Shown piece after piece: positions 4,327-40,798 of a stretch of 64,000 nt of DNA; position 1 is the first letter of the stretch; every line of letters starts with the position of its first letter. Below the pieces are notes generated by a model. The model saw only the letters and a program-made list of their open reading frames with translations. It was not told the origin of the DNA and ran no database searches. Position numbers and translations under genes: made by a program. This DNA comes from an uncultured Chloroflexia bacterium (GTDB taxonomy: Bacteria > Chloroflexota > Anaerolineae > CG2-30-64-16). The stretch lies in contig CAVOHP010000014.1 of NCBI GenBank assembly GCA_963695715.1, forward strand, positions 154,612 through 218,611, read 5' to 3'.

Positions 4327-4976
4327 CACAGCTCCGTATCTTGATCGCCGACGATCATCCCGTTTTCCGAGACGGCTTGCGGGCGGTGCTGGAAGCCACA
4401 TCCGGCGTCGAGGTCGTCGGCGAGGCGAAAACAGGGGAAGAAGCTGTTACTATGGTGGAAGAACTCTGCCCCGATTTAGTTATGATGGATGTGCAGATGC
4501 CCGGAATCAACGGCATCGAGGCAACGCGGCGGATCGCTCGCAATTGCTCCGAAACGCGCGTACTCATCGTTACGATGTTCGAGGATGATGCGACGGTGTT
4601 CACGGCCATGCGGGCCGGCGCGCGCGGCTACATCCTCAAGGACGCAGAGAAGGAGGAAATCCGCCGCGCCATTGAAGCAGTAGGCAACGGCGAGGCGATC
4701 TTCAGCCCGGCCATCGCCGCTCGCCTCATCGCTTACTTCGCCAGTCCGCATCTGACCATGCCACAGCAGACGTTTCCGGAGCTCACCGCACGCGACCGCG
4801 AGATCCTGGACCTGATCGCTCGCGGCGAGAATAACGGCAAGATCGCCGATCTGTTGGGGCTGAGCACCAAGACGGTCAGCAATTACGTCTCGACGATCCT
4901 GAACAAGCTGCAAGTGGCCGACCGCTCCGAGGCGATCGTGCGGGCGAAAGACGCAGGCTTCGGCAGCGCACCCTGA
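4323..4976 (+). CDS. Response regulator, NarL/FixJ family (REC + LuxR HTH)
   Basis: MTQLRILIADDHPVFRDGL...VLIVTMFEDD receiver domain; C-terminal LTARDREILDLIARGENNGKIADLLGLSTKTVSNYVSTILNKL; ATGA overlap with the kinase stop suggests translational coupling. Confidence 0.9.
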   Translation: MTQLRILIADDHPVFRDGLRAVLEATSGVEVVGEAKTGEEAVTMVEELCPDLVMMDVQMPGINGIEATRRIARNCSETRVLIVTMFEDDATVFTAMRAGARGYILKDAEKEEIRRAIEAVGNGEAIFSPAIAARLIAYFASPHLTMPQQTFPELTARDREILDLIARGENNGKIADLLGLSTKTVSNYVSTILNKLQVADRSEAIVRAKDAGFGSAP

Positions 4977-5085
4977 CCGCATGGAGACTCCCGAAACCTG
5001 GATTATGGATTTACGCCGCGCCCGAAGAGATGTTATCCTCAGCTACCATTCAAGTCAACTGTCTCAGAACACGCGAGGTAAACCA

Positions 5086-6163
5086 ATGACCGAATCGGAC
5101 GGCGCGGTATTTCCGGGCGCAGAGTGGGAGCCGGCGACGCCGGAGTCGCAGGGCGTGGACACGGCCGGCATCGCGGCCGCGCACGCATACCTCGAAGAGA
5201 TGATGGGAGAGAGCAGCACGCGGGAGACGACGATCATCCGGCATGGCCGCCTGATCTGGGAAGGGCCGGACAGCCGGGAAATGCACGGCGTGTGGTCGGT
5301 CACCAAATCGTTCACGAGCACCTGCCTCGGCCTGTTGGCCGACGACGGCCGGTGTGGGCTGGGCACGCCCGCGCACGAGTTCGCGCCGGAACTCGACGCG
5401 GATTATCCTGATGTGACGTTGCGCCACTTCACCACCATGACCAGCGGCTATCGCGCGGTGGGGGATGAGCCGCGTAACGGTTACCTGCACGGCCCCAGCC
5501 TGACGCCCTTCGATCCCAGCCCACAGCCGCTGTTCACCCCGCCCGGCAGCCACTATGCTTACTGGGATTCGGCCATGAACACCTTCGCCTGGGTGCTGAC
5601 GCGCATCGCGCGCGAACCGCTGGAGACGCTGTTCCGGCGGCGCATCGCCGACCCGATCGGCATGAACCCGGCGGAGTGGCGCTGGGGCGTGATCGAAAAA
5701 CGCGACGGGATCGCGGTCAACGGCGGGTCGGGTAACATGAACAAGCACGTCTTCATTTCGGCGCGGACGCTGGCGCGGCTGGGGCTGCTCTTCCTGCAAC
5801 GCGGCGTCTGGGATGGCCGCCGCCTGTTGAGCGCCGACTGGGTAGACGCGGCGACGCGGGTGCAAGTGCCCGCCTCGACTGCCGCTGGGCCACCCGGAGA
5901 GCGGCATTGATGGGCGCGGGGTCTATGGGTTCAACTGGTGGACGAATGATCTCCAACCCAACGGGGCGCGCCCCTTCCCCGATGCGCCGGCGGGGACGTA
6001 TCTGGCCCGCGGCAAGTTCGACAATATGTTGTTCGTGATCCCCGAATGGGATATGGTGGTGACGCGCCTGGGGCTGGCGGGCAATGCGCCCGATCACGTG
6101 TGGAACGGTTATCTGAAGCGGATCGGCGCGGCTATAAGCCTGGCATCACATAGAAGGTCGTGA
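5086..6163 (+). CDS. Beta-lactamase-family serine hydrolase, split by a frameshift near 5890-5910
   Basis: SVTKS (S-x-x-K) motif; downstream frame continues GIDGRGVYGFNWWTND...IPEWDMVVTRLG, as typical for the family, to the stop at 6161-6163. Confidence 0.7.
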
Positions 6164-26854: not shown

Positions 26855-28441
26855 CTATTCCGCGGTTTCGCCGCGGGCGACCGGCGCGAGCAGTTGGTCT
26901 ACCGGGGCATAGCGATCTGTCAGGGTCAGAAGCGGACCCTCGCTCAGCAAGTCGCTCACGGCTTCGGGGGTGAGGACCTGGCGGGCCAGATCGCCATCCG
27001 TGAGGTTGAGAGACTTGAGGCCCGCCAGATCGAGCGGGCTGTCCGTGGCGACGAGCACGTAGGTCATGCGGGGCGACTCGCGCCATGATGGACTGGCCGG
27101 GATGACGTAAACGTGATCGAAGGTCTGCTGGAGCGTATGAATGTACGCCCGCAGGAAATCGCGTTGCAGCCCATCAATCATGTTGACCAGATAGAGACCA
27201 TCGTCGCTGATCCAGGCGCGCACCCGTTCGTTGAACTCGCGGGTCGTCAGGTGATAGGGCACCGAGTAGTCGTTGAACGCATCCCCCATCACCAGATCGT
27301 ACTGCCGGTCGGGAGTGCGTTCGAGGTAGATGCGGGCGTCTTCGTTGAAGGAAGCGATCTCCGAGTCGCGGGAAAGCCCCAGCAGGTCTTGCGCGACGCG
27401 CGTCACGTCGGGGTCAATCTCCACCACGTCGAGCCGGCTGTCGGGATAGACCGCCTCCATGTAGCGCGGAAAGGTATAGCCGCCACCGCCGATGAACAAC
27501 GCGCGCAGCGGGTCATCGGCAGGGTTGCGCCGCGCGGCCAACTCCGTCACCGCGGCGTACACCTTCTCGTAGCCGTAGGTGAGGTGCGTGGGATCGTCCA
27601 GCGAGTTATAGCTGTGCACCAGCCGGTCGAGGATCAGCACGCGCAAGGTTTCGCCGTCGCGATCCTCTTCCGTCACTTTGATGCAGAAATAGTCGGTCTC
27701 CAGCGAACACGGCGAACCGAGCCATCCCTGCTGTAGCGCCAGGACGACGCCGCCGACCAGCGAGCGCCGATACCACGAGCAAGGCGGCCACGGGCGCTCC
27801 CCCGCTCCCTCGAACCGCCGGGAGGCAATGAAGAACAGGATCCCGATGAAGACCAGCAAGGCGGCCACGCCCGCCACGATCGCATGCGTGCCGAACTCGG
27901 AGATCAGCCAGAAGCCGGTGGCGAACGTGCCGAGGATGCTGCCCACCGTGCCCGCTGCGTAGATGCGCCCCACGGTGCTGCCCGTGCTGTCCAGGTCGCG
28001 CACCGCCAGCTTGGCGACGATGGGCGACACCATGCCCAGTATCATGCTGGGGAGGAAGAAGAGCAAGGTGGTGATGGCGAGGATTTGCAGGACGATCGGC
28101 CACGCGTTCGGCAGGCGTAAACCCACGTAGTCTACGGCCAGGACGCCGAGGCTCAAGAGGCCGGCCAGCGAGAAGATCACGCCGAGCAGCCGCAGTGAGG
28201 CGCAGCGGTCGGCCAGGCGGCCGCCCAGGTAGTTGCCCAGGCTCATCCCGGCCAGCACAATGCCGATGACGCTGGTCCAGGTGTAGAGCGACACGCCCAC
28301 GTAGGGCGCGATGATACGCCCGGCGACCAGCTCGAGCACCATCATGCACGCGCTGGAAACAAACGTAATCAGCGCGGGCCGCCACAACCACGCCCGCGTG
28401 AACGAAAGGTCGTCTGCGGCGATCTCGAACTGCGCCGTCAC
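26855..28441 (-). CDS. Fused polytopic membrane domain plus spermidine-synthase-like (aminopropyltransferase) domain
   Basis: 8+ TM helices, then LILDRLVHSY...LFIGGGGYTFPRYM...VVEIDPDVTRVAQDLLGL...LVMGDAFNDYSVPYHLTTREFNE (SpeE-like motifs); GTG start overlaps the mutM stop as GTGA. Confidence 0.75.
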   Translation of the reverse strand: MTAQFEIAADDLSFTRAWLWRPALITFVSSACMMVLELVAGRIIAPYVGVSLYTWTSVIGIVLAGMSLGNYLGGRLADRCASLRLLGVIFSLAGLLSLGVLAVDYVGLRLPNAWPIVLQILAITTLLFFLPSMILGMVSPIVAKLAVRDLDSTGSTVGRIYAAGTVGSILGTFATGFWLISEFGTHAIVAGVAALLVFIGILFFIASRRFEGAGERPWPPCSWYRRSLVGGVVLALQQGWLGSPCSLETDYFCIKVTEEDRDGETLRVLILDRLVHSYNSLDDPTHLTYGYEKVYAAVTELAARRNPADDPLRALFIGGGGYTFPRYMEAVYPDSRLDVVEIDPDVTRVAQDLLGLSRDSEIASFNEDARIYLERTPDRQYDLVMGDAFNDYSVPYHLTTREFNERVRAWISDDGLYLVNMIDGLQRDFLRAYIHTLQQTFDHVYVIPASPSWRESPRMTYVLVATDSPLDLAGLKSLNLTDGDLARQVLTPEAVSDLLSEGPLLTLTDRYAPVDQLLAPVARGETAE

Positions 28442-29298
28442 GTATTGCCTTCTTTCGCTGGGTCGGTGGTTAGCGGGTTTTCCGGCTGGCATTGCGGGCA
28501 ATAGTGGGTGCTGCGCTGCGTTACCACGATGCGCCGAATGGGCGCGCCGCAACGAAGGCAGGGCCGATCCGTCTGTTGGTAGACGCGGAGATGATGCTGA
28601 TATGCGCCCTGTAGCCCGTAGGGCGGGCGATAATCGCGCAGCATGGTGCCGCGCTCGCCGATGGAGGCGGTCAGAACTTCCTGGATCGCGCCGTGCAAAC
28701 GGATTACTTCCTCATCAGTAAGATCGGCGCCGGTGCGCAACGGATGGATGCCGGCCAGATGCAGGGCCTCGTCGGCGTAGATGTTGCCCACGCCGGCCAC
28801 CACTGTCTGATCCAGGAGAAGCGCCTTGAGCGACGTGCGCCGGTGGCGCAATCGAGACGTCAACACCTCCGGCGTGAAATCCCAGGCCAATGGCTCCGGC
28901 CCCAGCTTGCCGACGACGCTCTCCAGATCGGAGACGAGCCAGATGCGCCCGAACTTGCGAGCGTCGTTGAAAACGAGCGCGTCGCCGTCGGTCAGATAGA
29001 GGATCGCGCGCACGTGCGGCGCATCCAGATCGGGGCTGCCGGGGGACGCGACCATCAGCTTGCCCGTCATGCGCAGATGCACGATCAGTGTGTCGCCGGA
29101 CGCCAGCGTGAACAGGATATACTTGCCGCGGCGACCGATGTCCACGATGCGTTGACCGGCCAGGCGAATTGAAAAGCTGTCGGGGTCAGGCGCAGCGACC
29201 GTACGCGACCACAGCGCCCGCGCCGAAGCGAACTCCTTGCCGGTGAGCAGGGGGCGCAAGGCGCGGGCGACAGTTTCGACTTCCGGCAGCTCAGGCAT
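28438..29298 (-). CDS. mutM: Formamidopyrimidine-DNA glycosylase
   Basis: MPELPEVETVARAL N-terminus (catalytic Pro2, Glu3); C-terminal zinc finger CLRCGAPIRRIVVTQRSTHYCPQCQ. Confidence 0.9.
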   Translation of the reverse strand: MPELPEVETVARALRPLLTGKEFASARALWSRTVAAPDPDSFSIRLAGQRIVDIGRRGKYILFTLASGDTLIVHLRMTGKLMVASPGSPDLDAPHVRAILYLTDGDALVFNDARKFGRIWLVSDLESVVGKLGPEPLAWDFTPEVLTSRLRHRRTSLKALLLDQTVVAGVGNIYADEALHLAGIHPLRTGADLTDEEVIRLHGAIQEVLTASIGERGTMLRDYRPPYGLQGAYQHHLRVYQQTDRPCLRCGAPIRRIVVTQRSTHYCPQCQPENPLTTDPAKEGNT

Positions 29299-29308
29299 CA
29301 GACGGCAA

Positions 29309-31255
29309 TCACGGCGCGTTCGGGCTCACGTAATCGTAAGAAATATCTTTGGGCAGCGGCGCCAGGCTGCCGGCGTCTCCGCCAGCCAGGTCGCGCCAGA
29401 CGAGCATCCAGCCTCCGCCCTGATCGAGCAGGGCCAGCAGTTGGCCGGGAGCGACCCAATGCGGATCATACACGCTGATGCTATTGCCCAGCAACTCGGG
29501 TGCACGATCGGGCGCGCCGGCATAGACATTGTTGTCACTCAAATAGAGGAACTCCTGGCCGTATGGCGACCACCCCAGGAATCCGCCGCCCTGCAACTGC
29601 GCGTAGGGCTGCGGATTGGCGCCGTTCGGTTCCGCCAGCACAAGCTCGCGCGCATCGGGCGCGCCGGCGACGGGTTGAAGATACGCCAACCGGGCGCCGT
29701 CCGCCGACCAGGCCGTCTCGACCGCCGGGACGCTGCCGATGAGTTGCGCATCGCCATCCCCACTTTGCCGATAGAGCGCAACGCCCGATGCAGGATCTGC
29801 CGGCGGGGCAGCAAACAGCAGTTCGTCCCCGGTCGCGAGCCACCGCACCTGCGCCGGGTAGGCGGGCGCGCCCGGCGCGGCAGGGAAACGGGCAACCGTC
29901 CGGCCTGCGCCGCCGTCCGCCGCGTAGAGCGTCAGGACGCCTTCGGGCTGTTCCGGCGTACCATATTCCACGGCCGCGAAACGCGAGCCGCCAGGCGCAT
30001 AGAAGACACGCCCCGATGGTCCCATCTCCAGCACACGAAGACGCTCACCCGATGGCACATCCACGCGCCACAGCTCTTGCCGCGATGCGAGGTCACCAAC
30101 GGCGGCGATCAGGGCCAGTTTATCCTGTCCCGGAATCCAGTTTACCGTCTGGATGCGTCGCGCGCCGGCGCCCTCGGCGCTGGTTTCCGCGGCCAGGTCG
30201 CCCTCAGAAACGAGCGTCGCCGGGTTCTTGCCGTCCCAGGAGACGGCCTGGATTTCCACGCCATCTTCGCCCATCGCGCGATAGGCGATCCGGCTGCGGT
30301 TCTCCGAAATGATCGGCTGAGATGCGCCTACGGCGGCGGTTAGCGTCCTGATCCCGGAAGCGGCGTCCAGCGCCGACACGGTCGCACCGTCGGCAAACAC
30401 GAAGCCGGCCCCTTCCGGCAGCACCGTAGCGGGTGAAATCATTGCGGGCGCGAGCGCAGGCGTCAGCGCCGCCGAGGGTTGCCCGGCCTGGGCCGCAAAG
30501 GCTGCACCGCCCAATCCGCCGCCGCCGAGACCCCGCGCCGCCGGCGCCGCCGGGGATTCTTCCATCGCCAGGGTCGGCGCGGTCATGGCGGCATCCGACG
30601 CATCGGCAGCCTCGGCGCCAGGTTCCGGCGCAGCGTCCTTCATCTGCGCCGCTTCGGGCGCGGCTTCAGCCTGGGTTAGCGCTTCCATCGCAAGGGCAGG
30701 TTCAGCGGTCACGGGGGGGGCCGCGGCGGACACTTCCGGCTGGTCTTCCGCGGGGACGGCCTCGAAGGCCATCGCCGCCGCCGGCGCGATTTCCTCAGCG
30801 GGCATATCTGCGGTCACCGCCGCCGGCTCCACGGCAGGGGCCTCAGCCGCGGGAGCCTCGGCCGCGGGTGCGACGCGCGCAACCTGGGCGGTGGGCGCCC
30901 AACTCGTCTGTTGGCGCAGCAACGTCGTGGTGAACAGGGCAATCAGCGCCACCGCCGTCACCACGCCCAGCCCGCGCACCAGCCCGCCCAGCCAGACGGG
31001 TTGCGCGCCGGGCCGGCGAATGCCGACCTGCGCCTCAGACAACGTGAAGGCGCGCGGCACCGGGATGCGCGGCAACGCCCGCATCAGTACAATCGTCTGA
31101 CGCAGGCTCTCGGCTTCGCTCTGGCAGAGGGCGCATTGCTGCAAGTGTGCGCGTACACGATCCCGCTCCGCCGCCGTCACCTGTCCATCCAGGTACGCGG
31201 AAAGCAGTTCGGTCCCGATGTGCGCGTCTCGCGCGGCGCCGAATAATCGCTTCAT
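29309..31255 (-). CDS. Anti-sigma factor: N-terminal zf-HC2 zinc finger, one TM helix, long Ala/Pro/Glu low-complexity spacer, C-terminal TolB-like beta-propeller (648 aa)
   Basis: HLQQCALCQSE zinc-finger motif; TM LGVVTAVALIALFTTTLL; C-terminal PD40-like repeats (ENRSRIAYRAMGEDGVEIQAVSWDGK..., RFAAVEYGT...); sits immediately downstream of the ECF sigma gene. Confidence 0.7.
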   Translation of the reverse strand: MKRLFGAARDAHIGTELLSAYLDGQVTAAERDRVRAHLQQCALCQSEAESLRQTIVLMRALPRIPVPRAFTLSEAQVGIRRPGAQPVWLGGLVRGLGVVTAVALIALFTTTLLRQQTSWAPTAQVARVAPAAEAPAAEAPAVEPAAVTADMPAEEIAPAAAMAFEAVPAEDQPEVSAAAPPVTAEPALAMEALTQAEAAPEAAQMKDAAPEPGAEAADASDAAMTAPTLAMEESPAAPAARGLGGGGLGGAAFAAQAGQPSAALTPALAPAMISPATVLPEGAGFVFADGATVSALDAASGIRTLTAAVGASQPIISENRSRIAYRAMGEDGVEIQAVSWDGKNPATLVSEGDLAAETSAEGAGARRIQTVNWIPGQDKLALIAAVGDLASRQELWRVDVPSGERLRVLEMGPSGRVFYAPGGSRFAAVEYGTPEQPEGVLTLYAADGGAGRTVARFPAAPGAPAYPAQVRWLATGDELLFAAPPADPASGVALYRQSGDGDAQLIGSVPAVETAWSADGARLAYLQPVAGAPDARELVLAEPNGANPQPYAQLQGGGFLGWSPYGQEFLYLSDNNVYAGAPDRAPELLGNSISVYDPHWVAPGQLLALLDQGGGWMLVWRDLAGGDAGSLAPLPKDISYDYVSPNAP

Positions 31256-31285
31256 TAATGGTTTCTCATCTTTATCCAGGATGCT

Positions 31286-31939
31286 TTAGAGACGGTATTG
31301 CGCAGGCAAAAGTTCCTTATGCTCCATGAGCAGGTCGCGCAGCTTGGCGCGCGCCCGGCTGAGCCGTGATTTGACGGTGCCGAGCGCCACGCCAGTAGCG
31401 TCGGCGATCTCCTGATAGTCCAAACCCTCGATATCGGCCAGCACCAGCGTCGCTCGCTGGTCTTCGGGCAATTGCTCGATGGCCGCCTGGATCATGCCGG
31501 CCAGCTCGCGGCGCATGACGAAGGCTTCGGGCCGCTCGGCGGCGTCGATCAGCCGCGCGTCATGCTCCGAATCCATCTCATCGCCCTCCGAGTCGTCGCC
31601 GTCGAGCGAACTGGTGGGGCGGCGCTTTTGCGAGCGCAGCATGTCGTAGCAGGTGTTGGTGACGATCCGCAGCACCCACGCCTTGAAGGAGCCGCCGCGG
31701 TACTGGTCAATGCGCTGGTAGGCCTTGATGAAGGCGTCCTGCGTCGCATCGGAGGCCGAATCACCGTCACCCATCACGCGATAGGCGACGTTATAGGCGA
31801 TGCCCTGATAATGGAGGATGAGCTGGTTGAAGGCGGGGAGGTGGCCGCGTTGCGCGGCGGCGATCAGCGCGGCCTCGTCGAATTGGGGGCCGCGTGGCGA
31901 TGACGGCCCCTCGCCCCACCCGCCATCATATGATGTCAT
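31286..31939 (-). CDS. ECF-type RNA polymerase sigma factor (sigma-70 regions 2 and 4)
   Basis: FDEAALIAAAQRGHLPAFNQLILHYQGIAYNVAYRVMGDGDSASDATQDAFIKAY (region 2); LPEDQRATLVLADIEGLDYQEIADATGVALGTVKSRLSRARAKLR (region 4); start chosen at MTSYDG, an upstream ATG at 32029 is also possible. Confidence 0.85.
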   Translation of the reverse strand: MTSYDGGWGEGPSSPRGPQFDEAALIAAAQRGHLPAFNQLILHYQGIAYNVAYRVMGDGDSASDATQDAFIKAYQRIDQYRGGSFKAWVLRIVTNTCYDMLRSQKRRPTSSLDGDDSEGDEMDSEHDARLIDAAERPEAFVMRRELAGMIQAAIEQLPEDQRATLVLADIEGLDYQEIADATGVALGTVKSRLSRARAKLRDLLMEHKELLPAQYRL

Positions 31940-32138
31940 CCGCAGCAAACGGGCGCGTAAAGGCTCCGACCAAGCCACAACGGCCTGCCGAAAGGAACCT
32001 GCGCCCGCAATCGCCTGTAGCGTAATCATTCAGCCTGTGATCGAAGTTCCGAGATCCGTGTGCTGTCACCCTGAGCGGGTTAACCACTCAACTTGCGCTG
32101 CGGTTAGCCTCCAGCGAAGGGTCTCGACTCGTGATTGC

Positions 32139-32200
32139 GAGAGATTCTTCGCTAGAGTGCTCGCCGCAACCAACGTCCTGAGGTCAACCTGCTCAGAATG
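32139..32200. repeat. Intergenic repeated element, copy B (between the ECF sigma gene and tRNA-Leu)
   Basis: Shares AGAGATTCTT, GGTCAACC and GCTCAGAATG blocks with 13391-13468 at similar spacing (~30 nt). Confidence 0.5.
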
Positions 32201-32291
32201 ACGCGTGATCTCATCTAGATCGAAATTCCAGCCTGTGATGGGTTGAACTTGACGGACGGCACAGAATCGCGTATACTGATTGCTTGCACAG

Positions 32292-32374
32292 GCCGAAGTG
32301 GCGGAAAGGTAGACGCGATGGTCTCAAACACCATTGGGGGTTGCCCCATGTGGGTTCGATTCCCACCTTCGGCA
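32292..32374 (+). tRNA. tRNA-Leu, anticodon CAA, class II with long variable arm
   Basis: Acceptor GCCGAAG/CTTCGGC, D-stem GCG/CGC, anticodon stem ATGGT/ACCAT with loop CTCAAAC, variable arm TGGGGGTTGCCCCAT, T-arm GTGGG-TTCGATT-CCCAC, discriminator A; 83 nt. Confidence 0.85.
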
Positions 32375-32820
32375 CTGAAACTCAGCCGGCGCCCACAAAG
32401 GGCGATACGATGAGATCCGGCGCGACCCATGTGATCCGGCATTATATCAGCGATCAACCCATCGGGCCAAAGCCCCATGCTCGTTTGATACATGGGTAAC
32501 AATCCAAAAAGGTCACGAACAGGAGGGGCGCTTCGCCTGGGTCCAGACTCATATTGAACCAGCGCGGATGTCGCCCCACTGTGATGCCAAGCCATTGCTT
32601 TATGCTTGAAAACCACTCAATACCTCGTGGACCGCGCAGCGTCCGTACACTTCTTCACGCGTCCTGCGGTTGGTCACCTTGAGCCTCATTGTTTTGAGCT
32701 CTGGCCGGATGTTCGCGCTTAGGCACAGCCCGCGCCGGCGACCCCGCGGCCACGATCGGCGAAATCGCAACGCAATATACAGTCAGCGGCGACCTGGCGA
32801 CTGCACAGGCGGCCCTCGCG

Positions 32821-33882
32821 GCGTTGAAGCTGCCGAACGCCGCGCAACTGGTCGCCAGCCTTGCGGAAGATGCGATCTCGCAGGGGCGGGCGGATCAGGA
32901 GGCGCTGGCCCGGCTGGCCGCCGACCTGGGGACGAAAAGCCCGCGCATCCTGGCCTATCTACGGCCCACGGACGCGCCCAGCCCCACCGCCAGTCCGCTG
33001 CCCCCGCCGACGGAAACGCCTCAACCGACCCTGACGCCCACCGAAAGCCCCGCGCCGACGGAAATCCCGGCCACGGCGACCCTCGAACCCACATCCGACG
33101 CCGACCGCGACGCGACGCCCGACGCGCCGCGCGCGGTCGCCGAAAACGACGTGAACCTGCGCGGCGGCCCCGGCAGGCAGTATGCGGTGATCGGAAAGTT
33201 GCGCAGCGGGCAAGAAGCCGATATTATCGGGAGGAACGCGAGCGGCGACTGGTGGCAACTGGATTGGGACGGGCAGGCCTGGGTCGCCGGGACGGTGGTC
33301 AAGATCGTGGGGGCGCTCGATACGGTGGCCGTGGCGAAGAACATTCCCGCTGCGCCCACGCCTCGACCGGTTCCGACCGCCGCGCCTGTTGCGCCCGCCG
33401 CGCCGACGCAACCTCCGGCCGCCGTCGCGCCCAAGGCGTCAACCGCCTACGTGGTGAAAAGCGTGCGAGTGCGGCCATTGGGCCAGGATGCGCAGCAATG
33501 CGGCGGCGGTGAGCATAATATTTTCGTGACAGTCGTGGATCCGGGCGGCGCGCCGATTGACGGCGTACGAATCCGTGAAGTGTTCACCGGAATTGTCCAC
33601 GTGACCGGCGAAAAAGGTCCGGGCCGGGTGGATTACGATATTTACATGAATGGCGGCGGCCAGGTCGAGGTTGTGGACGAAGGAAACAACCCGCTCAGCC
33701 CGCAAACCCGGGGGATGAGCGCCAACCTGCCCGATTGGGATATGTTCCTGGACGCAGGATACTGCAATTGCAAACCCTATCCTGACGTTGACAGTTGCCG
33801 CGCCGGGTGGGAAGCCCGCGACTTCCGTTACATGCCGAACAGCCATTACGTTTACGACGTCGTTTTCCAGAGGACTTACTGA
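32821..33882 (+). CDS. Protein with PT-rich linkers, SH3b domain and an unrecognised ~130-aa C-terminal domain ending VVFQRTY; start uncertain (no ATG or signal peptide in the open frame, TTG at 32821)
   Basis: SH3_3-like VNLRGGPGRQYAVIGKLRSGQEADIIGRNASGDWWQLDWDGQAWVAG; C-terminal CGGGEHNIFVTVVDPGGAPIDGVRIREVFTG...KGPGRVDYDIYM...YVYDVVFQRTY is paralogous to the C-terminus of 33974-35781; the overlapping Arg-rich ORF in another frame looks spurious. Confidence 0.55.
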   Translation, partial: ALKLPNAAQLVASLAEDAISQGRADQEALARLAADLGTKSPRILAYLRPTDAPSPTASPLPPPTETPQPTLTPTESPAPTEIPATATLEPTSDADRDATPDAPRAVAENDVNLRGGPGRQYAVIGKLRSGQEADIIGRNASGDWWQLDWDGQAWVAGTVVKIVGALDTVAVAKNIPAAPTPRPVPTAAPVAPAAPTQPPAAVAPKASTAYVVKSVRVRPLGQDAQQCGGGEHNIFVTVVDPGGAPIDGVRIREVFTGIVHVTGEKGPGRVDYDIYMNGGGQVEVVDEGNNPLSPQTRGMSANLPDWDMFLDAGYCNCKPYPDVDSCRAGWEARDFRYMPNSHYVYDVVFQRTY

Positions 33883-33973
33883 GCTAGCAAAGCTAGAATG
33901 CTTCGCTCGGGCAGCACAGCGGTTGAGCCGGGGACACAGGCCCGGTGTGTGCTGATCTGCAAGGAGTGAGTTT

Positions 33974-35781
33974 GTGAAAGCATCCATGATAGATAATGCG
34001 CCGTTGTTCGCCGACCTGTCGGACGAGCAGCGCGCGGCGCTCGCCGATCGCATGGCGTTGCGAGCCGTGGCCGCCGGGGCCGTCATCTACGCCCAGGGCC
34101 AGCCCGCAAGAGACATGTACTTCGTCGGGTCGGGGCGCGTGCGGCTGCTGGCAGGCGAGGACACCGTGGTCGCCAATCTGGGCCAGGGGGCGCTGTTCGG
34201 CGACGCCGATGTTCTGGCGGGCCGCCCTTACAGCCTGACCGCAGAGGCGGCGACGGATTCGGCGTTATGGGCGCTCGAGCGCGGACAACCTGGCAGGGGT
34301 GATCGAAAAGTACCCCGAGATGGGCCGCAAGTTGATGCTGGCCGCCGGCCTCAGCGTCGAGCAGACCGCAGAACGACATCTGAAGCGGCTGGGGTTGCTC
34401 AGCGGGCTGACCTCCGAGCAGATTCAGGAAGTCGCGGGGCATCTGACCACGCAAGATTTCGCCGCCGGACAGGCCATCTATCGCGAGGGCACACCGGGCG
34501 AGGCGCTGTACATCATCGAAGACGGGCAGGTGTCGTTGCAAGCCGGCGGGTTCGTGACCGGGAACCGTTGGCGAGGGCGAGTTCTTCGGTGAAGCCGCGC
34601 TGCTCAACAACGACCTCCATGCCAACGATGCCATTGCACAAACCGCCTCGACGATCTGGGTGCTGGGACGCGACGATTTCGAGGAGCTGGCGCTCAAGTA
34701 TCCCGCCCTGAGCCTGAACCTGATGCGCGCGCTCAGCCGCCGATTGCGCGTGGGCGCGCCGGCAGCGGCGGCAGTCGCAGCGACGGCACCGGCCGTCCAG
34801 GCTTCGGCCCGCGCCGCAGCGCCGGTCGCCGTGGCGAGCGCGGCGGCCCCGCGCCGCCCGGTTCCCGTTGCGCCGCCCAGCGCGGCGGCCGTCACCGTCG
34901 AAAAGGCCTCGGGTTCGGCGACATCATGGTGGGGTACAGCCACGACGGGGGCGAAGATCCGCCTGGTGGCGTTGATCTTGCTGCTGATCTGGCTGATCGG
35001 GATCGCCACACCGCTGGCGATCATGAGCATGCGCCAGAACAACCCGGCATCGCGTTCGATGAATTCGGCCCGCCAGCGGCCTGATGTGCGCAGCCAGGTC
35101 GTCCTGTTGGCGCTGGCCGCGGATTTGCCGGTGCAGACCACGCCGACTTACACGCCCTGGCCCACTGAGACGCCGATGCCGACGGCCACCTTCACGCCCA
35201 CGGCCACGCCGACCGAAACGCCCATCCCGACGGCCACCTTCACGCCGACCGAGACGCCGGTCCCGCCGACTTCCACGCCGGTCCCGCCCGCGCCGGTCGC
35301 CCGCCAGGCCGCGCCGGCGCCGGTTGAGCAACCCGCCGCGCAGGAAGCTGCGCCGGTTGCAGCCGCCGCCGCAGTCCAGGCTGCGCCGGCCGCGCCAACC
35401 GTGCTCTACAAGCTGGTCGAGATGCGCCGGTTGACCGCGTGTGAGAATAAGGGCAACCATAACATCTTCATCGAGGTGATTGACGCCGCCGGGAATCCCC
35501 TTGATGGCGTCACGCTCGTTCAAACATCCCAGGATCAGATCGGCAACGTGCTGGATAAAGCGGTTTCCGGCGTGAAAGGCCCCGGCAAGGCCGAGTTCCT
35601 GCTGTGGAAGATGGCCGAGTACGCCGTCTACGTCACTGAAGACGGCTCTAACCCGGCCAGCACCGACATCGCTCGCCCCCTGCATTCCAACTTCACCGAC
35701 GAAGCCGAGTGCTCGGATGGCGGCGGCGGGAACACGCTGTTCCACAACTCCTTCAAGGTTGTGTTCCAGCGCACGTCCTGA
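33974..35781 (+). CDS. Single-pass membrane protein: two N-terminal cyclic-nucleotide-binding domains, Ala-rich spacer, TM helix, PT-rich linker, C-terminal unrecognised domain ending VVFQRTS; two frameshifts (~34280, ~34565)
   Basis: CAP_ED-like 1: FADLSDEQRAALADRMALRAVAAGAVIYAQGQPARDMYFVGSGRVRLL...GALFGDADVLAGRPYSLTAEA; CAP_ED-like 2: LTSEQIQEVAGHLTTQDFAAGQAIYREGTPGEALYIIEDGQVSLQAG...GEFFGEAALL...TIWVLGRDDFEELA; TM IRLVALILLLIWLIGIATPLAIM; C-terminal CENKGNHNIFIEVIDAAGNPLDGV...KGPGKAEFLLW...FKVVFQRTS. Confidence 0.65.
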
Positions 35782-35805
35782 ACGATCTCAATACCCAAAA
35801 GTGAA

Positions 35806-35837
35806 AGGCCCCGGTGAATTCCGGGGCCTCTTTTTTT
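35806..35837 (+). terminator. Rho-independent terminator (AGGCCCCGG-TGAATT-CCGGGGCCT followed by T7)
   Basis: 9-bp GC-rich stem plus CTTTTTTT immediately after the stop at 35781. Confidence 0.7.
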
Positions 35838-35898
35838 GGCCATGCCACAAGGTGCAACGCACCTCGGAAGTGCGTTGCACCTTGCTGATCAGATCTGC

Positions 35899-36147
35899 TC
35901 AGACTCTACGGCCGCGCACGAGGCGCTCTTTTTGTTGCCGGGTGTAGCGTTTGATGCACGCCTCGCGCTTCATGGCCGAGGCCCGATCCGCGGCTTCTTC
36001 TTGATAGACCAGCGTCACCGGGCGGCGCGTCTGTGTGTAGCGCGCGCCGCGGCCGGCATTATGCGCCGCCACGCGCCGCGCCACGTCAACGGCCCAGCCG
36101 GTGTAATAGGTGCCGTCGGCGCAACGCAGGATATACACATAGGGCAT
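35899..36147 (-). CDS. GIY-YIG nuclease-family protein (82 aa)
   Basis: MPYVYILRCADGTYYTGWAVDVARRVAAHNAGRGARYTQTRRPVTLVYQEE: GIY...YIG motif spacing plus conserved Arg/Glu; start overlaps the upstream stop (TGATG). Confidence 0.8.
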   Translation of the reverse strand: MPYVYILRCADGTYYTGWAVDVARRVAAHNAGRGARYTQTRRPVTLVYQEEAADRASAMKREACIKRYTRQQKERLVRGRRV

Positions 36148-37136
36148 CAGCGCTTGCCGGACTCCGCAGGCGGCGGACGCTTCGTGCGCCCGATGCCGAG
36201 CATAGACTTGAGCATGCTGCCCTTCGTGGGCATCTCCGGCATCGGCTCGGTCAGATCCCACCGTCCGCTGTAGTACGCCTCCAGCCAGCCCGTGCGCGCC
36301 GCCAGCGCCTCGTCGAATTGCGCCGCCAGCGCAGCCTCATCGGCATCGGCGATGGCCGCGCGCAACGCGCCCAACTCGGCCGATACCGCATCCAGCCAGT
36401 GCAGCACCGCGGTGGAATTGGCGAGACACGCCGCGGCGGCCGCGCCGCCCGTCGCCGGCATGATCAGGCTGCTGCTGTAGAACTGGCCCGCCGCCAACCG
36501 CCGCATGTCGCGCCAGTTCGGGCTGCTCGACCCGACCCCCAGCAGCGCCGCGGCCATGAGAGACGCCGCGCCCTCCGTCGCTGCGGTGAACACATCGTGC
36601 TCCTGCGCATCTACGAAGAACGGCTGCGCGCCCAGCGCCGCCACCAGATCAGACGCCAGTTGGACGGCCGTCTCATTCGTTGCCGCGTCGGGGGCCAGCG
36701 CGAATACCCGATCCTTATACAAATCGGGCGAGGCCACGGTGGTGTCGCTCAGGTCGGCGAGGATGATCGGATGGCCGGCCACCAGATGCACGTTTGACGG
36801 CAAGGTTTCGCGGCCCAGGGCGATGACCGGAGAGATGACGTCGCTGAGCGCCAGGATGACGCAACCCGGTTTGAGGTTTTCGCTCATGACCGCCAGGGTG
36901 TCCTTCACTTCGTCCAGCGGCACGACCAGGATAATGCGATCGGCCCCTGACGTGGCGGCGGACAAGTTCCACTCGGTCTTCTCCACCGCGCCCAGCTTGC
37001 GCGCGCCGGCCGATAGCTCGGCGCTGGCGTCGTGCCCGATCACGACGACGCGATCCGCATGACGGCGCAACGCCATGCCCGCGGATGCGCCGAGCAGGCG
37101 CAACCCGATGATCGTGACTTGTATCTTATCCGGCAT
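36147..37136 (-). CDS. Prephenate/arogenate dehydrogenase-family protein
   Basis: VTIIGLRLLGASAGMALRR Rossmann GxGxxG; ...LVAGHPI...; 329 aa; family-level call only. Confidence 0.65.
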   Translation of the reverse strand: MPDKIQVTIIGLRLLGASAGMALRRHADRVVVIGHDASAELSAGARKLGAVEKTEWNLSAATSGADRIILVVPLDEVKDTLAVMSENLKPGCVILALSDVISPVIALGRETLPSNVHLVAGHPIILADLSDTTVASPDLYKDRVFALAPDAATNETAVQLASDLVAALGAQPFFVDAQEHDVFTAATEGAASLMAAALLGVGSSSPNWRDMRRLAAGQFYSSSLIMPATGGAAAAACLANSTAVLHWLDAVSAELGALRAAIADADEAALAAQFDEALAARTGWLEAYYSGRWDLTEPMPEMPTKGSMLKSMLGIGRTKRPPPAESGKR

Positions 37137-37175
37137 GGCTTCTTCCCTTTGTGTTATGTCAATATCTAGTTGTCA

Positions 37176-37736
37176 TCATCTGCGGCCTGCAAGGCGACCA
37201 ACAGGTGATCCGGCTCCGCCTGCGCCGGCGGCTCCTGATGCCTGCGGATGAGGCTCACGGCGCCGCGGATCGCACCCCGCGGCTTCCGCGAGGGTCGCGC
37301 CGACATCGGGATGATGCACGTGCGCCCAAAAAGGTTGTCGCCATCCGCCGGGGCCAGGGGCGGGCGCCGCCGCCCACCCGGCGAGAGACGCGGGCCAGTA
37401 CGCCTTGATCAGTACGGCGATCACACGATGCGCGAGCGTGATGCCGCCCCGATGCTTGGCGCAATCATGGAGCAGCGCCGCCTGCGCCAGGGCCGGCTCC
37501 GCATATCCCCGCGCGCGCAGCGTCCGCCACACCTCGAGCGCGTGGCGGCGATCCACCTGCGGCATCGCCGCATAGAGTTCCCAGGCCGACTCCGGCAACA
37601 CGCGCCGCGCTTCGGCCTCATCGGCGGGCTGCAAGGGGTGCAGTAACACCCTCACCGCCTGCCCAAACTGGCGAACCCGATAGCGCGCCTGGCTCAGGGC
37701 TGAGCGCGGAGGGGTACGAACGCTATCGGCCATCAT
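37176..37736 (-). CDS. HD-domain phosphohydrolase-family protein
   Basis: H...HD motif: RRHALEVW...AALLHDCAKHRGG; C-terminal ~40 aa low-complexity, possibly frameshifted. Confidence 0.55.
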   Translation of the reverse strand: MMADSVRTPPRSALSQARYRVRQFGQAVRVLLHPLQPADEAEARRVLPESAWELYAAMPQVDRRHALEVWRTLRARGYAEPALAQAALLHDCAKHRGGITLAHRVIAVLIKAYWPASLAGWAAAPAPGPGGWRQPFWAHVHHPDVGATLAEAAGCDPRRREPHPQASGAAGAGGAGSPVGRLAGRR

Positions 37737-38393
37737 ACGCCGAGCAAGGCCCCTCGAATCGTGTTCATCAGCGGCCCCAGCACCTTGCCCAGGAAATTGA
37801 GGCCGGGCGAGAAGTAGCCGATCATCAGCAACCCCATCAGCAGGAGCGAACCGTAGGTGCGTAACGGCTCGAAGAACCGCGCGGCGTCTTCGCCCACAAT
37901 GCCCATCAGCACGCTATAGCCATCCAGTGGGCCCAGCGGGATCAAGTTGAAGATGAAGAGCACGACGTTGATCGTGACGAAGGTCCAGATCACACCGAAG
38001 ACCCACGGAGGCGCAGCATCGAACAGCGCCCAACCGATAGGGGATGGCGACGATGATCGCCATGAGCAGGTTGCTGAGCGGCCCCGCGGCGGCGACAATG
38101 GCGTTGCCGACGCGCGGCCCGTAACGCAGACGATAGGGATTCACCGGCACAGGCTTGGCCCAGCCGATGAACTGCGTCACGATCAGCATCAGCGACCCGA
38201 AAATATCGAGGTGGCGCAGCGGGTTGAGCGTCAAGCGGCCCATTTGCTGCGCGGTGTCATCGCCCAACCGATAGGCGACGAGCGCGTGGGCAAACTCATG
38301 CACCGGGAACGCCACCAGCAGGATCACGGCCATCGCGACGATGGTCGAAATATCAATATTTGGCACTACATCTTCCTTGCAAGACAAACTCAC
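37733..38393 (-). CDS. Site-2 protease-family (peptidase M50) zinc metalloprotease; one frameshift
   Basis: HEFAHALVA (HExxH) in the first frame; NVVLFIFNLIPLGPLDGYSVL (LDG motif) in the second frame. Confidence 0.7.
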
Positions 38394-38516: not shown

Positions 38517-40798
38517 ATGGCCCGAAAGATCGTTGATTTGTCTACCTACCCGTGGCGCATGGGCCAGGTCCCCCGCCAGCCGTTCGGCGCGGCGCCCCAC
38601 GATGACCGTGACGCAGTGACCGAATGGCTGCCCGCGCGCGTGCCGGGCGATGTGCGCGCCGACCTGATCGCCGCAGGCCGGATTCCCCCTGTGGAAAGCC
38701 CCGAGGGCATCGCCGCCGGAGAGTGGGTGGACGAGTAGCGATTGGTGGTATCGCGTGGAGTTGCCCCGCGACTTCGCGGCGGATGAAACGGTGATCCTCG
38801 AAGCGGACGGGATTGACTATCAGAGCGCGATCTGGTTGGATGACATGCTCCTCGGGACGCACGTCGGGGCGTTCGCGCGGCAGGCCATGCCGTTGGCGGT
38901 GCAACCCGCCGGCGCGCACGAACTGGCGATCCGCATCTGGGGCGGCGGGGCGCTGCCGCGCCTGCCCGCGACGACGAGCAAGCATCTCATGCGCGGCGTC
39001 CTCGGTCGCCTCGCTCCCGGCATCGAGTACTTCCCCGACCGCATGGCGACGACGAAAGCCCAGTTCGGCTTCGGGTGGGATTTCTCACCGCGCCTGCTCA
39101 GCGCCGGCATCTGGGATGAGATCCGCCTGATCCGCACCCATAACGCCTACATCGAGGACCTGCACATCCGACCCGATCCGCTCACCGAGGCCGATCCGAC
39201 GGCGGTCATCTGGCGGCTGCGGCTGCGGGTGGCCCGCCTGCACCCCTGCGCGGTGCGCGCCGAAGTGACCATCCGTCCCGAGAATTTCGAGGCCGGTGGG
39301 TATCACGCCGCGGGGCGCACCATCAACCTGTGTCCCAACGATGCGCCGCTTTGCACCGCCGATTACGACCTCGCTGTGGAGATGGCCGCGGCGCGACGCT
39401 GGCAGCCGTGGGATCAGGGCGATCCGTGTCTTTATCGCGTCACCATACGCCTGCTCGACGGGAACACCGTGCTTGACGAGATCAGCGAGGTCACGGGAGT
39501 GCGCCGGGTCGAGCGGGCGGCCCTGCCCGGCGGCGCGCCCTGGAGTTTCCGGGTCAACGGCCGGCCCTACGTTCCTCCGCGGGGCAAACTGGGTTCCGGC
39601 GGACATCCTGCCGGGTCGCGTCACTGCGGACGATTACGACCGCCTCATCGGGCACGCACGCGCGGCGGGCGTCAACTTCCTGCGCGTGTGGGGCGGCGGG
39701 GTGCGCGAGAAGCGGGCCTTCTGGGACGCCTGCGATCGGCTGGGCATCCTGGCATGGCAAGAGTTCCCGTTGGCCTGCGCCTTCCTCGACCACTACCCGC
39801 GCAGCCCGGAGTATCTCGATCTCCTGGAGGCGGAGGCGCGCGGCGCGGCGCAGTTGTTGCGGAATCACCCCTCGCTGCTGGCCTGGTGCGGCGGCAATGA
39901 GATCAACGCGGCGCGCGAGGCGCTGCCGCTGGCGCGCCTGGCGAATGTGCTGCGCGAGGAAGACCCCGACCGGCCCTGGATTCCCGCGTCGCCGTCCGAC
40001 GGGGATATCCATCAATGGAACGTCTGGCACGCCTTCGAGGATTGGGCGACGCTGGCCGATGCGCGCGCGCCCTTCCTGAGCGAGTTCGGGATGCAGGCGC
40101 TGCCCTGCGCCGATTCGGTCGCAGAGATGTTCACCGCTCCCGCGCCCACCTCGTTGAGCGACCCACGCTGGGCGGCGCGGCTGGCGCAAACGGCGAAGCT
40201 GGCATTCTATGCGGGCGATGCGCCCGATCTGACGGCGGCCATCACGCAGACTCAGAGAGTGCAGGCCGCAGCATTGCAAACGGGGATCGAAGCCTGCCGG
40301 ATACGCCGCGAACCCTGCGAACCGGCAACGGATGGCGCAGATGCGGCCTGGGACTACTGCGGAGGCGTGGCATTCTGGCAATTCAACGAACCGTGGCCCG
40401 CAGTGAGCTGGTCGGTGATGGATCGCGCGGGACGCCCGAAGGCCGCCTACGCCATCCTGCGACGATCTTACCAACCGCTGTTGATCGCCGCGCGCTTCCC
40501 GTGGATGGAGTTCACCACAGCAGCCGCCCTGCCCATCGAATTCTGGATCGTGAACGATGCGCCGGTAGAGCATCGGGGGTGCAGGGCGGAAGCTCGCCTC
40601 GACGGGCGGCTGGTCTGGTCTGCCGCCGACCTGAACGTACGCGGGGGCGCAGCAGCCCGCATCGCCCGTGTAGAAATCGCCCTCAGCGGGCCGCCGGAAC
40701 AACTGGAACTCGCGTTGCTTGCAGCCGGAGGGAACCCACTCGCCTGCAATGTTTACGACCTGAGCGTCCCCCGTCCGCACAACGCGCCCCGCGGCTGA
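38517..40798 (+). CDS. Glycoside hydrolase family 2-like (beta-mannosidase-like) protein; two frameshifts (~38737 and ~39580)
   Basis: EWVDE|DWWYRVELPRDF junction (one extra T at 38737 creates a TAG); RVNGRP|FLRGANWVPADILP junction; downstream ...WQEFPLAC...GGNEI...WQFNEPWPAVSWSV blocks typical of GH2 TIM-barrel and C-terminal domains. Confidence 0.7.

Follow-up and report, generated by a model that had tools for sequence, protein, structure and literature searches.

Two adjacent genes, here called A and B, were found in a 64-kb window of DNA (the whole stretch analysed) from an uncultured filamentous Chloroflexota bacterium, and the proteins that they encode end in the same uncatalogued domain. 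Protein A is predicted to be a lipoprotein with a peptidoglycan-type SH3b domain that would bind peptidoglycan, and protein B is a genuine fusion of cyclic nucleoside monophosphate (cNMP) domains, a transmembrane (TM) helix and the shared C-terminal domain. An anti-sigma factor, an extracytoplasmic function (ECF) sigma factor, tRNA-Leu(CAA), A and B make up a block that is conserved across the class Anaerolineae. We interpret A–B as a class-wide two-gene cell-envelope module, and we infer from its architecture that the two proteins act as paired membrane-to-envelope tethers with binding tip domains; we put the probability of this reading at about 0.5. Anaerolineae are abundant filamentous bacteria of wastewater sludge, sediments and anaerobic digesters and are mostly uncultured. 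To our knowledge, almost nothing has been established about their envelope organisation or sensing.

The shared C-terminal domain

The C-termini of A and B are homologous. The last ~147 amino acids (aa) of A align with the last ~128 aa of B in BLASTP with E=6e-13 and 28% identity, and a family hidden Markov model (HMM) finds exactly two copies in the window, with E values of 3e-75 and 6e-65. Hmmscan of both full proteins against Pfam at E<=1 returns only SH3_3 and cNMP_binding, plus a weak off-target match. No NCBIfam model matches the shared domain, nor does the CarboxypepD_reg (PF13620) family HMM even at E<=1, and a profile search of PDB sequences gives nothing significant (best E 0.019). 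Nothing describing the domain or the module turned up in the literature. The shared domain is an uncatalogued sequence family. A preliminary description of this DNA had called the C-termini paralogous and the domain unrecognised; both statements stand, and structure models now place the domain in a transthyretin-like/CnaB fold.

A word-indexed search with the domain pair retrieved 106 clusters, all unnamed or 'hypothetical' except one named 'YraI', which reflects the SH3 domain of that protein; the taxon-named clusters among the 106 are Anaerolineae or Chloroflexi metagenome-assembled genomes (MAGs). Searched exhaustively with an HMM, a set of 1.84 billion representatives contains 1006 matches at E<=1e-3, of which 389 reach E<=1e-10, with some scores inflated by linker columns in the search profile. 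The 106 clusters fall into an A-like group with the signature GYCNCKP...GHYxYEVVFQRT, a B-like group with the signature C-E-N-x-G-x-HNIF ... DGGGGNTLFHNSF, and a third group of more distant members. Among the matches listed, the domain almost always reaches the last residues of the protein. In other architectures it accompanies one to four cNMP domains, one to four SH3_3 domains, Laminin_B or N_BRCA1_IG, and in some proteins it is solo, preceded by a lipoprotein signal peptide and a Pro/Thr linker. Columns D30, G33, K61, G64 and H117 are invariant in a 78-sequence alignment. The loop residues KGPG and HNIF are strongly conserved, and GGGGNTLFHNS is nearly invariant in B.

The word-indexed matches were all <=255 aa, suggesting that B-type domains might be separate small genes. 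This was rejected when a scan of genome contigs showed intact open reading frames (ORFs) of ~565–980 aa; the short matches are fragments from contig ends or frameshifted long-read assemblies. Both the genome collection and the 50%-identity library (P0111, P0115) contain intact family proteins of that length, and the length distribution from the word-indexed search alone would mislead.

The AlphaFold2 models have a predicted local distance difference test score (pLDDT) of 94.1 for the B domain (128 aa, 78-sequence alignment) and of 94.4 for the A domain (147 aa, 53 sequences). Both are beta-sandwiches, and they resemble the CnaB/pilin domains 3kpt, 8bdw, 3phs and 6fwv as well as the transthyretin-like carboxypeptidase D domains 5aq0 and 1qmu; the prealbumin-like seven-stranded beta-sandwich and the CnaB-like beta-sandwich are both recognised. 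Weak matches of the family profile extend to 28 Big_1/CarboxypepD_reg repeats in an inverse autotransporter. As modelled, the domain has a fold that is very common among surface proteins (transthyretin-like/CnaB/carboxypeptidase-regulatory) and constitutes a new family in sequence, with an extra 40–60 C-terminal residues and conserved Cys. Isopeptide (CnaB) chemistry and a C-terminal sorting domain like that of the type IX secretion system (T9SS) were also considered for the domain, and supporting evidence was found for neither.

Proteins A and B and the frame breaks in the window copy

Gene B is not one ORF in the window. It starts with GTG 33974, 7 nt past AAGGAG, in frame 2 (to ~34282), continues in frame 0 (~34284–34562) and ends in frame 1 (34564 to the stop at 35781). 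The first cNMP domain lies in frame 2, its end and the start of the second in frame 0, and the remainder in frame 1. Dropping one base at each of the two junctions yields a 601-aa protein. Among the related contigs, labelled L001–L081, L003 is a megahit contig (short-read MAG) with ~85% DNA identity that is collinear with window 27243–37163. Its intact 596-aa ORF reproduces the stitched B almost exactly, thereby confirming the stitching.

Protein A was recovered in a similar way. Frame 1 is open over 32698–33882, with TTG 32824 as the first start codon, and the N-terminus is split over frames 1, 0 and 1 as MLENHSIPRGPRSVRT, SSRVLRLVTLSLIVL and ALAGCSRLG. After two frame corrections the N-terminus reads ...RVLRLVTLSLIVLALAGCS and has a lipobox. 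The intact A of L003 reads MFENHSISRGPRSARISSRVLPLILLSLIAFSLVGC, in which a positively charged stretch is followed by a hydrophobic core and the lipobox. The lack of a start codon and signal peptide previously ascribed to A is an assembly artefact, because two insertions split its lipoprotein signal peptide.

Four insertions break the frames, at ~32645 (+2) and ~32696 (+1) in A and at ~34277 (+1) and ~34560 (+1) in B. A four-way alignment with L003 and the sibling long-read-style contigs L080 and L081 shows all four in the window only. L081 carries about 12 private single-base insertions at other sites and L080 a few (1–3) private single-base indels, and L001 and L002 break gene B at yet other positions. 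Since the insertions are private and the sibling assemblies break elsewhere, they are almost certainly assembly errors. Their distribution gives some ground for taking A and B as true pseudogenes, with biological insertions and a module lost from this genome: four frame-breaking insertions fall within 3.4 kb, against no uncompensated indel relative to L003 in the ~6 kb flanking A–B, a somewhat non-random cluster. The differently placed breaks of the related contigs argue against this, as do the frameshifts in other window genes (GH2 twice and an apparent M50 split), the absence of in-frame stops or large deletions and the otherwise preserved coding identity. Loss of the module is therefore quite improbable. 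Indel errors in long-read MAGs have hidden these gene structures, and the public gene calls for the species group list fragments of 126–250 aa.

Other genes of the window are also affected. The GH2-like gene (38517–40795, plus strand) runs over three frames, from 0 to 1 near 38740 and from 1 to 2 near 39560, and requires two +1 corrections; its breaks, of the same +1 type as those in A and B, indicate assembly indel errors. The M50-type (HExxH, site-2-protease-like) gene (37733–38393, minus strand) consists of two overlapping ORFs in different frames, 37914–38393 and 37733–38098, probably owing to another frameshift. The M50 protease of L002, which is of another family, has no tblastn match in the window. 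The possibility that the nearby M50 protease acts on B by regulated intramembrane proteolysis was considered and dropped, as no evidence supported it and the M50 neighbour is not conserved. Two compensating single-base indel pairs relative to L003 were seen. The pair at 33098/33114, which only the window has, falls in A's first Pro/Thr linker, and the pair at 27757/27796 falls in the gene for a 565-aa membrane protein; each leaves a short out-of-frame stretch without stop codons.

The SH3b domain of A matches SH3_3 (PF08239) with 32.3 bits against a gathering cutoff of 27, and SH3_3 is found in 40 of the 44 A orthologues. Other intact A orthologues have the lipoboxes LVGC, TAGC, LTGC or LSGC; the Caldilineales-type clade has an uncleaved TM anchor at the N-terminus instead. 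The stitched B matches cNMP_binding (PF00027) over two stretches with E=8e-40 (135 bits, cutoff 27.5). Intact B in short-read MAGs has either ~565–615 aa with two cNMP domains or ~850–980 aa with mostly four. These intact ORFs, together with the cNMP_binding match in all 55 intact orthologues scanned, show that the fusion is genuine. The SH3b domain, the two cNMP domains and the single TM helix had been named in the preliminary description, which also proposed looking in relatives for the co-occurrence of the C-terminal domain with cNMP or SH3b domains; Pfam, hydropathy and the orthologue counts bear this out. Its treatment of B as one protein is upheld by the orthologues, although it had stitched over two +1 frameshifts between three window frames without remark.

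B is predicted to have an N-in/C-out topology, with its C-terminal domain outside the cell. The lipoboxes or TM anchors of A, the conserved Cys, and the single TM helix of B after a large N-terminal part without a signal peptide all place the C-terminal domains outside the cytoplasm, as had been supposed. Two segments of B are almost invariant in an alignment of 55 orthologues from across the class, namely TPTYTPWPTETP at the start of the stalk (35137–35172) and a Trp motif (SWW/SWF...STGAK) just before the TM helix (34930–34956). Such near-invariance is odd for a plain spacer and could reflect a modification (e.g. glycosylation) or an interaction site. The source annotations of family members are 'hypothetical protein' and, for B orthologues, the JGI name 'CRP-like cAMP-binding protein'.

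Table 1. Positions of the features of the A–B locus in the window.
Feature	Coordinates	Strand	Basis or remark
Anti-sigma factor, 648 aa	29309..31255	-	intact ORF; Pfam zf-HC2 E=1.2e-9
ECF-type sigma factor, 247 aa as called	31286..32029	-	Pfam Sigma70_r2, Sigma70_r4_2, Sigma70_ECF; start codon uncertain
Sigma-70-like promoter TTGACG-N17-TATACT, just 5' of the tRNA	32249..32277	+	consensus scan
tRNA-Leu(CAA)	32292..32375	+	ARAGORN; Rfam tRNA 59.9 bits
Extended -10 promoter-like element TTGGCC-N18-TATAAT with TG	32441..32470	-	consensus scan
Gene A, predicted lipoprotein of ~425-431 aa after removal of two window-private insertions	32584..33882	+	start ATG 32584 or 32602
A signal peptide with LAGC lipobox	lipobox 32698-32712	+	hydropathy; three-frame reading
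A helical domain, conserved, ~70 aa	32746-32961	+	
A Pro/Thr linker	32962-33129	+	
A SH3b domain	33130-33312	+	SH3_3 E=1.1e-7
A second linker, Pro/Thr/Ala	33334-33438	+	
A C-terminal domain, 147 aa, 4 Cys, ends VVFQRTY	33439..33879	+	modelled beta-sandwich with helical, Cys-rich insertion
Gene B, predicted type-II single-pass membrane protein of ~601 aa after removal of two window-private 1-nt insertions	33974..35781	+	
B cNMP-like domain 1	~33998-34282	+	
B cNMP-like domain 2	~34400-34749	+	
B Ala-rich linker with conserved Trp motif	34750-34956	+	
B TM helix	34957-35025	+	single strong helix, Kyte-Doolittle 2.7
B juxtamembrane segment	35026-35136	+	
B Pro/Thr linker, opening with conserved TPTYTPWPTETP	35137-35394	+	
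B C-terminal domain, 128 aa, 2 Cys, GGGGNTLFHNSF motif, ends VVFQRTS	35395..35778	+	
Intrinsic terminator 3' of gene B	35806..35839	+	9-bp stem, 8 GC pairs, then T-run; terminator scan

Conserved neighbourhood of the pair

When GTDB species representatives were scanned, 77 loci were found. Every one comes from a Chloroflexota MAG or draft genome, most of these carrying the label Anaerolineae, Anaerolineales or Caldilineales; Ca. Amarolinea aalborgensis is among them. A six-frame HMM scan shows that, wherever upstream DNA is available, B is essentially always preceded immediately by an A-type gene on the same strand, and tblastn locates the ECF sigma gene upstream on the opposite strand in nearly all loci with enough upstream DNA. 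L054 is an exception, with no A-type gene, tRNA or sigma gene detectable upstream of its B. In L070, a Caldilineales MAG, two tandem A-type genes (2785–4137 and 4191–5468) precede B, which makes three copies of the domain. In 48 of 49 species-level genomes the sigma gene and A are separated by tRNA-Leu(CAA), with its position and orientation unchanged.

The position of the pair directly downstream of a tRNA gene is what would be expected if it were mobile-element cargo integrated at tRNA-Leu(CAA), and the tRNA had been described as an integration hotspot. Yet the same tRNA, orientation and neighbours recur in those 48 genomes, whose B domains are only 46–87% identical to that of the window. 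Neither repeats nor an integrase-like ORF were found, the latter among the ORFs of the region, and the GC content of the tRNA-A-B stretch is similar to its surroundings (~66% in the region). The constant position of the tRNA thus reflects conserved synteny, not an integration site, and mobile cargo is hardly credible as an explanation.

The sigma gene is divergent from the tRNA-A-B unit. The anti-sigma factor consists of an N-terminal zf-HC2 domain, a TM helix, an Ala/Pro-rich linker and a large extracytoplasmic C-terminal domain. Its N-terminal part is kept beside the sigma gene in nearly all related loci, and its C-terminal part only in the clade with two cNMP domains. The ECF sigma/anti-sigma neighbourhood noted earlier is therefore real and conserved, but the TolB-like propeller read into it has no Pfam match at E<=1e-3 in the C-terminal part of the anti-sigma factor.

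Two promoter-like elements bracket the tRNA gene, in the window as in L003–L078. Immediately 5' of the gene, all 34 aligned sequences have the hexamers TTGACG and TATACT with hardly a change. Past its 3' end, at a distance of 2–138 nt, 48 of 49 loci have a minus-strand TATAAT hexamer (mostly with TGn before it) that is preceded by a TTGGC/TTAGC-like box. Transcription from this second element would run antisense across the tRNA in the direction of the sigma gene, converging with the tRNA promoter. The sigma ATG is only ~65–70 nt from the tRNA start in many loci, which leaves little room for another sigma promoter. The terminator scan shows no terminator-like site on the plus strand between the tRNA, A and B, and an Rfam scan of 31900–36300 finds the tRNA only, with no riboswitch or leader. 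This arrangement suggests that A–B is transcribed by read-through from the tRNA promoter, as a candidate tRNA-A-B unit, and that transcription of the sigma operon starts at the minus-strand element and crosses the tRNA in the convergent direction.

In the loci L003–L024 of the clade with two cNMP domains, the minus-strand element lies between the arms of an inverted repeat, CCCATGTG ... (A)CATGGG (window 32427–32434 and 32491–32497). RNAalifold gives a weak 7-bp stem (-5.6 kcal/mol) for CCCATGTG...CACATGGG, mostly invariant and with little covariation. Changes occur on both arms in two or three lineages, and the arms may form an RNA hairpin or be protein half-sites.

The first gene after B in the window is a GIY-YIG nuclease-like ORF (35899–36261, minus strand), which as listed overlaps a prephenate dehydrogenase ORF (36147–37136, minus strand) by 115 nt. 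The true GIY-YIG start is probably further downstream than listed, because its Pfam match begins at residue 39. The sibling contig L080 (~93% identical) has a DDE transposase gene (L080 6391–7389) a few hundred bases downstream of B.

Proposed function of the pair and comparison with known systems

In the tether reading, A would be anchored by lipid and B by its TM helix, each holding the same domain on an extended Pro/Thr-rich stalk of about 100+ residues. The tip domains may thereby reach the same outer envelope layer, a wall polymer or sheath, and bind a common envelope component there, or possibly each other. A would add a hold on peptidoglycan through SH3b, and B would couple the outer attachment to its cytoplasmic nucleotide-sensor-like domains. 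The coupling is envisaged as ligand-dependent clustering or positioning of B rather than conformational change, because the ~120-aa Pro/Thr/Ala stalk of B appears too flexible for allosteric transmission. Expression would probably proceed by read-through from the tRNA promoter and be linked with the neighbouring ECF sigma system. Since the domain also stands alone on other lipoproteins, the most economical reading seems to be a tip module with an outer-layer component as its ligand.

The nucleotide pockets bear on the sensor part. In the canonical phosphate-binding cassette, FGE(L/M)AL...R(S/T)A, the Arg contacts the cyclic phosphate, as in CAP, PKA and MlotiK1. The B cassettes were aligned to the consensus from these three proteins. 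In the window, domain 1 (FGDADVLAGRPYSLTA) has Tyr and domain 2 (FGEAALLNNDLHANDA) has His at the Arg position, so neither has the canonical cassette. Domain 1 has Tyr or Phe there in 23 of 23 two-domain orthologues, whose last domain has His in 14 and Arg in 9; over 55 orthologues, the last (membrane-proximal) domain carries His 33 times and Arg 21 times at this position. Among the four-domain orthologues, 25 of 32 retain the canonical Arg in domain 3. It is plausible that the B family binds cyclic nucleotides, but uncertain for the window's own B because the phosphate-binding Arg is replaced in both domains. That B links cytoplasmic cNMP to the cell surface, as suggested earlier, is still something that we infer from the architecture, with the Tyr and His of the window copy as a caution. 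These replacements weigh against the tether reading, together with the clustered frame breaks described above and the lack in B of any output domain that would explain the role of its cytoplasmic part. Since inert stalk and spacer domains occur in the same fold class, binding does not follow from the fold, and the literature shows no ligand, partner or phenotype for the module.

The main alternative is an obligate A–B heterodimer for inside-out signalling, in which the paralogous tip domains bind each other specifically, a peptidoglycan-bound lipoprotein pairs with a TM sensor and cyclic nucleotide inside the cell alters the complex outside, in the manner of LapD. The strict adjacency and co-conservation of A-type and B-type copies in nearly all loci would fit such a complex, as would the split of the paralogues into two subfamilies with differing C-terminal elaborations, GYCNCKP...GHYxYEV in A and DGGGGNTLFHNSF in B; a sensor-like cytoplasmic module without an output domain would also need a partner to have an effect. 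It is made doubtful by the stalk, whose ~120 Pro/Thr/Ala-rich residues could not pass an allosteric signal, by the degenerate cNMP pockets of many orthologues and by the many other proteins in which the domain occurs with no paired copy in the same sequence, their genomic context not having been examined. The shared domain might instead have no binding function and only give structure or stability, capping the stalk as CnaB domains do in pilins, with A and B as independent surface proteins that are neighbours by chance. This seems rather unlikely: the C-terminal position, the strong conservation of the loops and the pairing of the genes across the whole class argue for a specific function and for a coupling of A and B. 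A wider possibility, which we regard as unlikely, joins the tRNA-Leu(CAA)-A-B unit and the ECF sigma/anti-sigma operon into one regulatory device. The A–B pair, as a trans-envelope heterodimer, would report or set the state of the outer layer, and transcription of the sigma operon antisense through the tRNA would make the two expressions mutually exclusive or RNA-coupled. If true, filamentous Chloroflexota would have a new kind of envelope signalling, inside-out/outside-in, that is specific to them.

Several points are of wider interest. The five-element block is intact across at least 48 species-level lineages, which points to a core envelope function. The domain merits a family entry of the domain of unknown function (DUF) type, and about 1000 clusters that are now 'hypothetical' would gain a handle. 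B represents a rare architecture, which joins cNMP-binding-like domains to an extracellular domain and has neither an enzymatic nor a DNA-binding output; should its ligand and partner be identified, B would add a new way for cyclic-nucleotide-type sensors to act.

Among the closest known systems are the CnaB domains of Gram-positive pilins and MSCRAMM adhesins (BcpA 3kpt, CnaB2 8bdw, GBS52 3phs), to which the shared domain is only 10–15% identical. CnaB domains have a conserved isopeptide triad of Lys, Asn(Asp) and Glu(Asp), whereas the shared domain lacks it in the first and last strands: in the 78-sequence alignment no Lys is conserved in the first strand (NIFxxV) and no Asn or Asp in the last (xVVFQR), and K61 belongs to the KGPG turn rather than to strand 1, as judged on sequence and secondary structure and not on three-dimensional distances. 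CnaB proteins carry an LPXTG sorting signal; A and B stop 1–2 residues past VVFQRT, with neither LPXTG nor a C-terminal TM segment for a sortase anchor. CnaB is a repeated stalk unit, while the shared domain is the last in the protein and has 40–60 extra residues with disulfide Cys. The Pfam models of the CarboxypepD_reg PF13620/transthyretin-like domains and of the Big_1/invasin-type Ig-like repeats miss the shared domain, which differs from them in a distinct C-terminal half (GGGGNTLFHN or GYC...C...GHYxYEVVFQRT), in its Cys pairs and in its exclusively C-terminal position.

B has tandem PF00027 cNMP_binding domains in common with CRP/FNR-type and other bacterial cNMP proteins. Unlike the CRP/FNR type, it has no helix-turn-helix or other output domain, it is predicted to be membrane-anchored with a large extracytoplasmic tail, and the cassette Arg is replaced in both window domains and in many orthologues. 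LapD-type receptors and single-pass anti-sigma factors are analogues in architecture only. As far as general knowledge allows the comparison, B has no sequence or domain homology to either, and what it has in common with them is the order of a cytoplasmic module, a membrane span and an extracytoplasmic domain; the ECF sigma/anti-sigma pair beside the A and B genes is a further point of likeness. LapD has two TM helices and a HAMP domain, whereas B has one TM helix and, in place of a rigid transmission element, a long disordered stalk.

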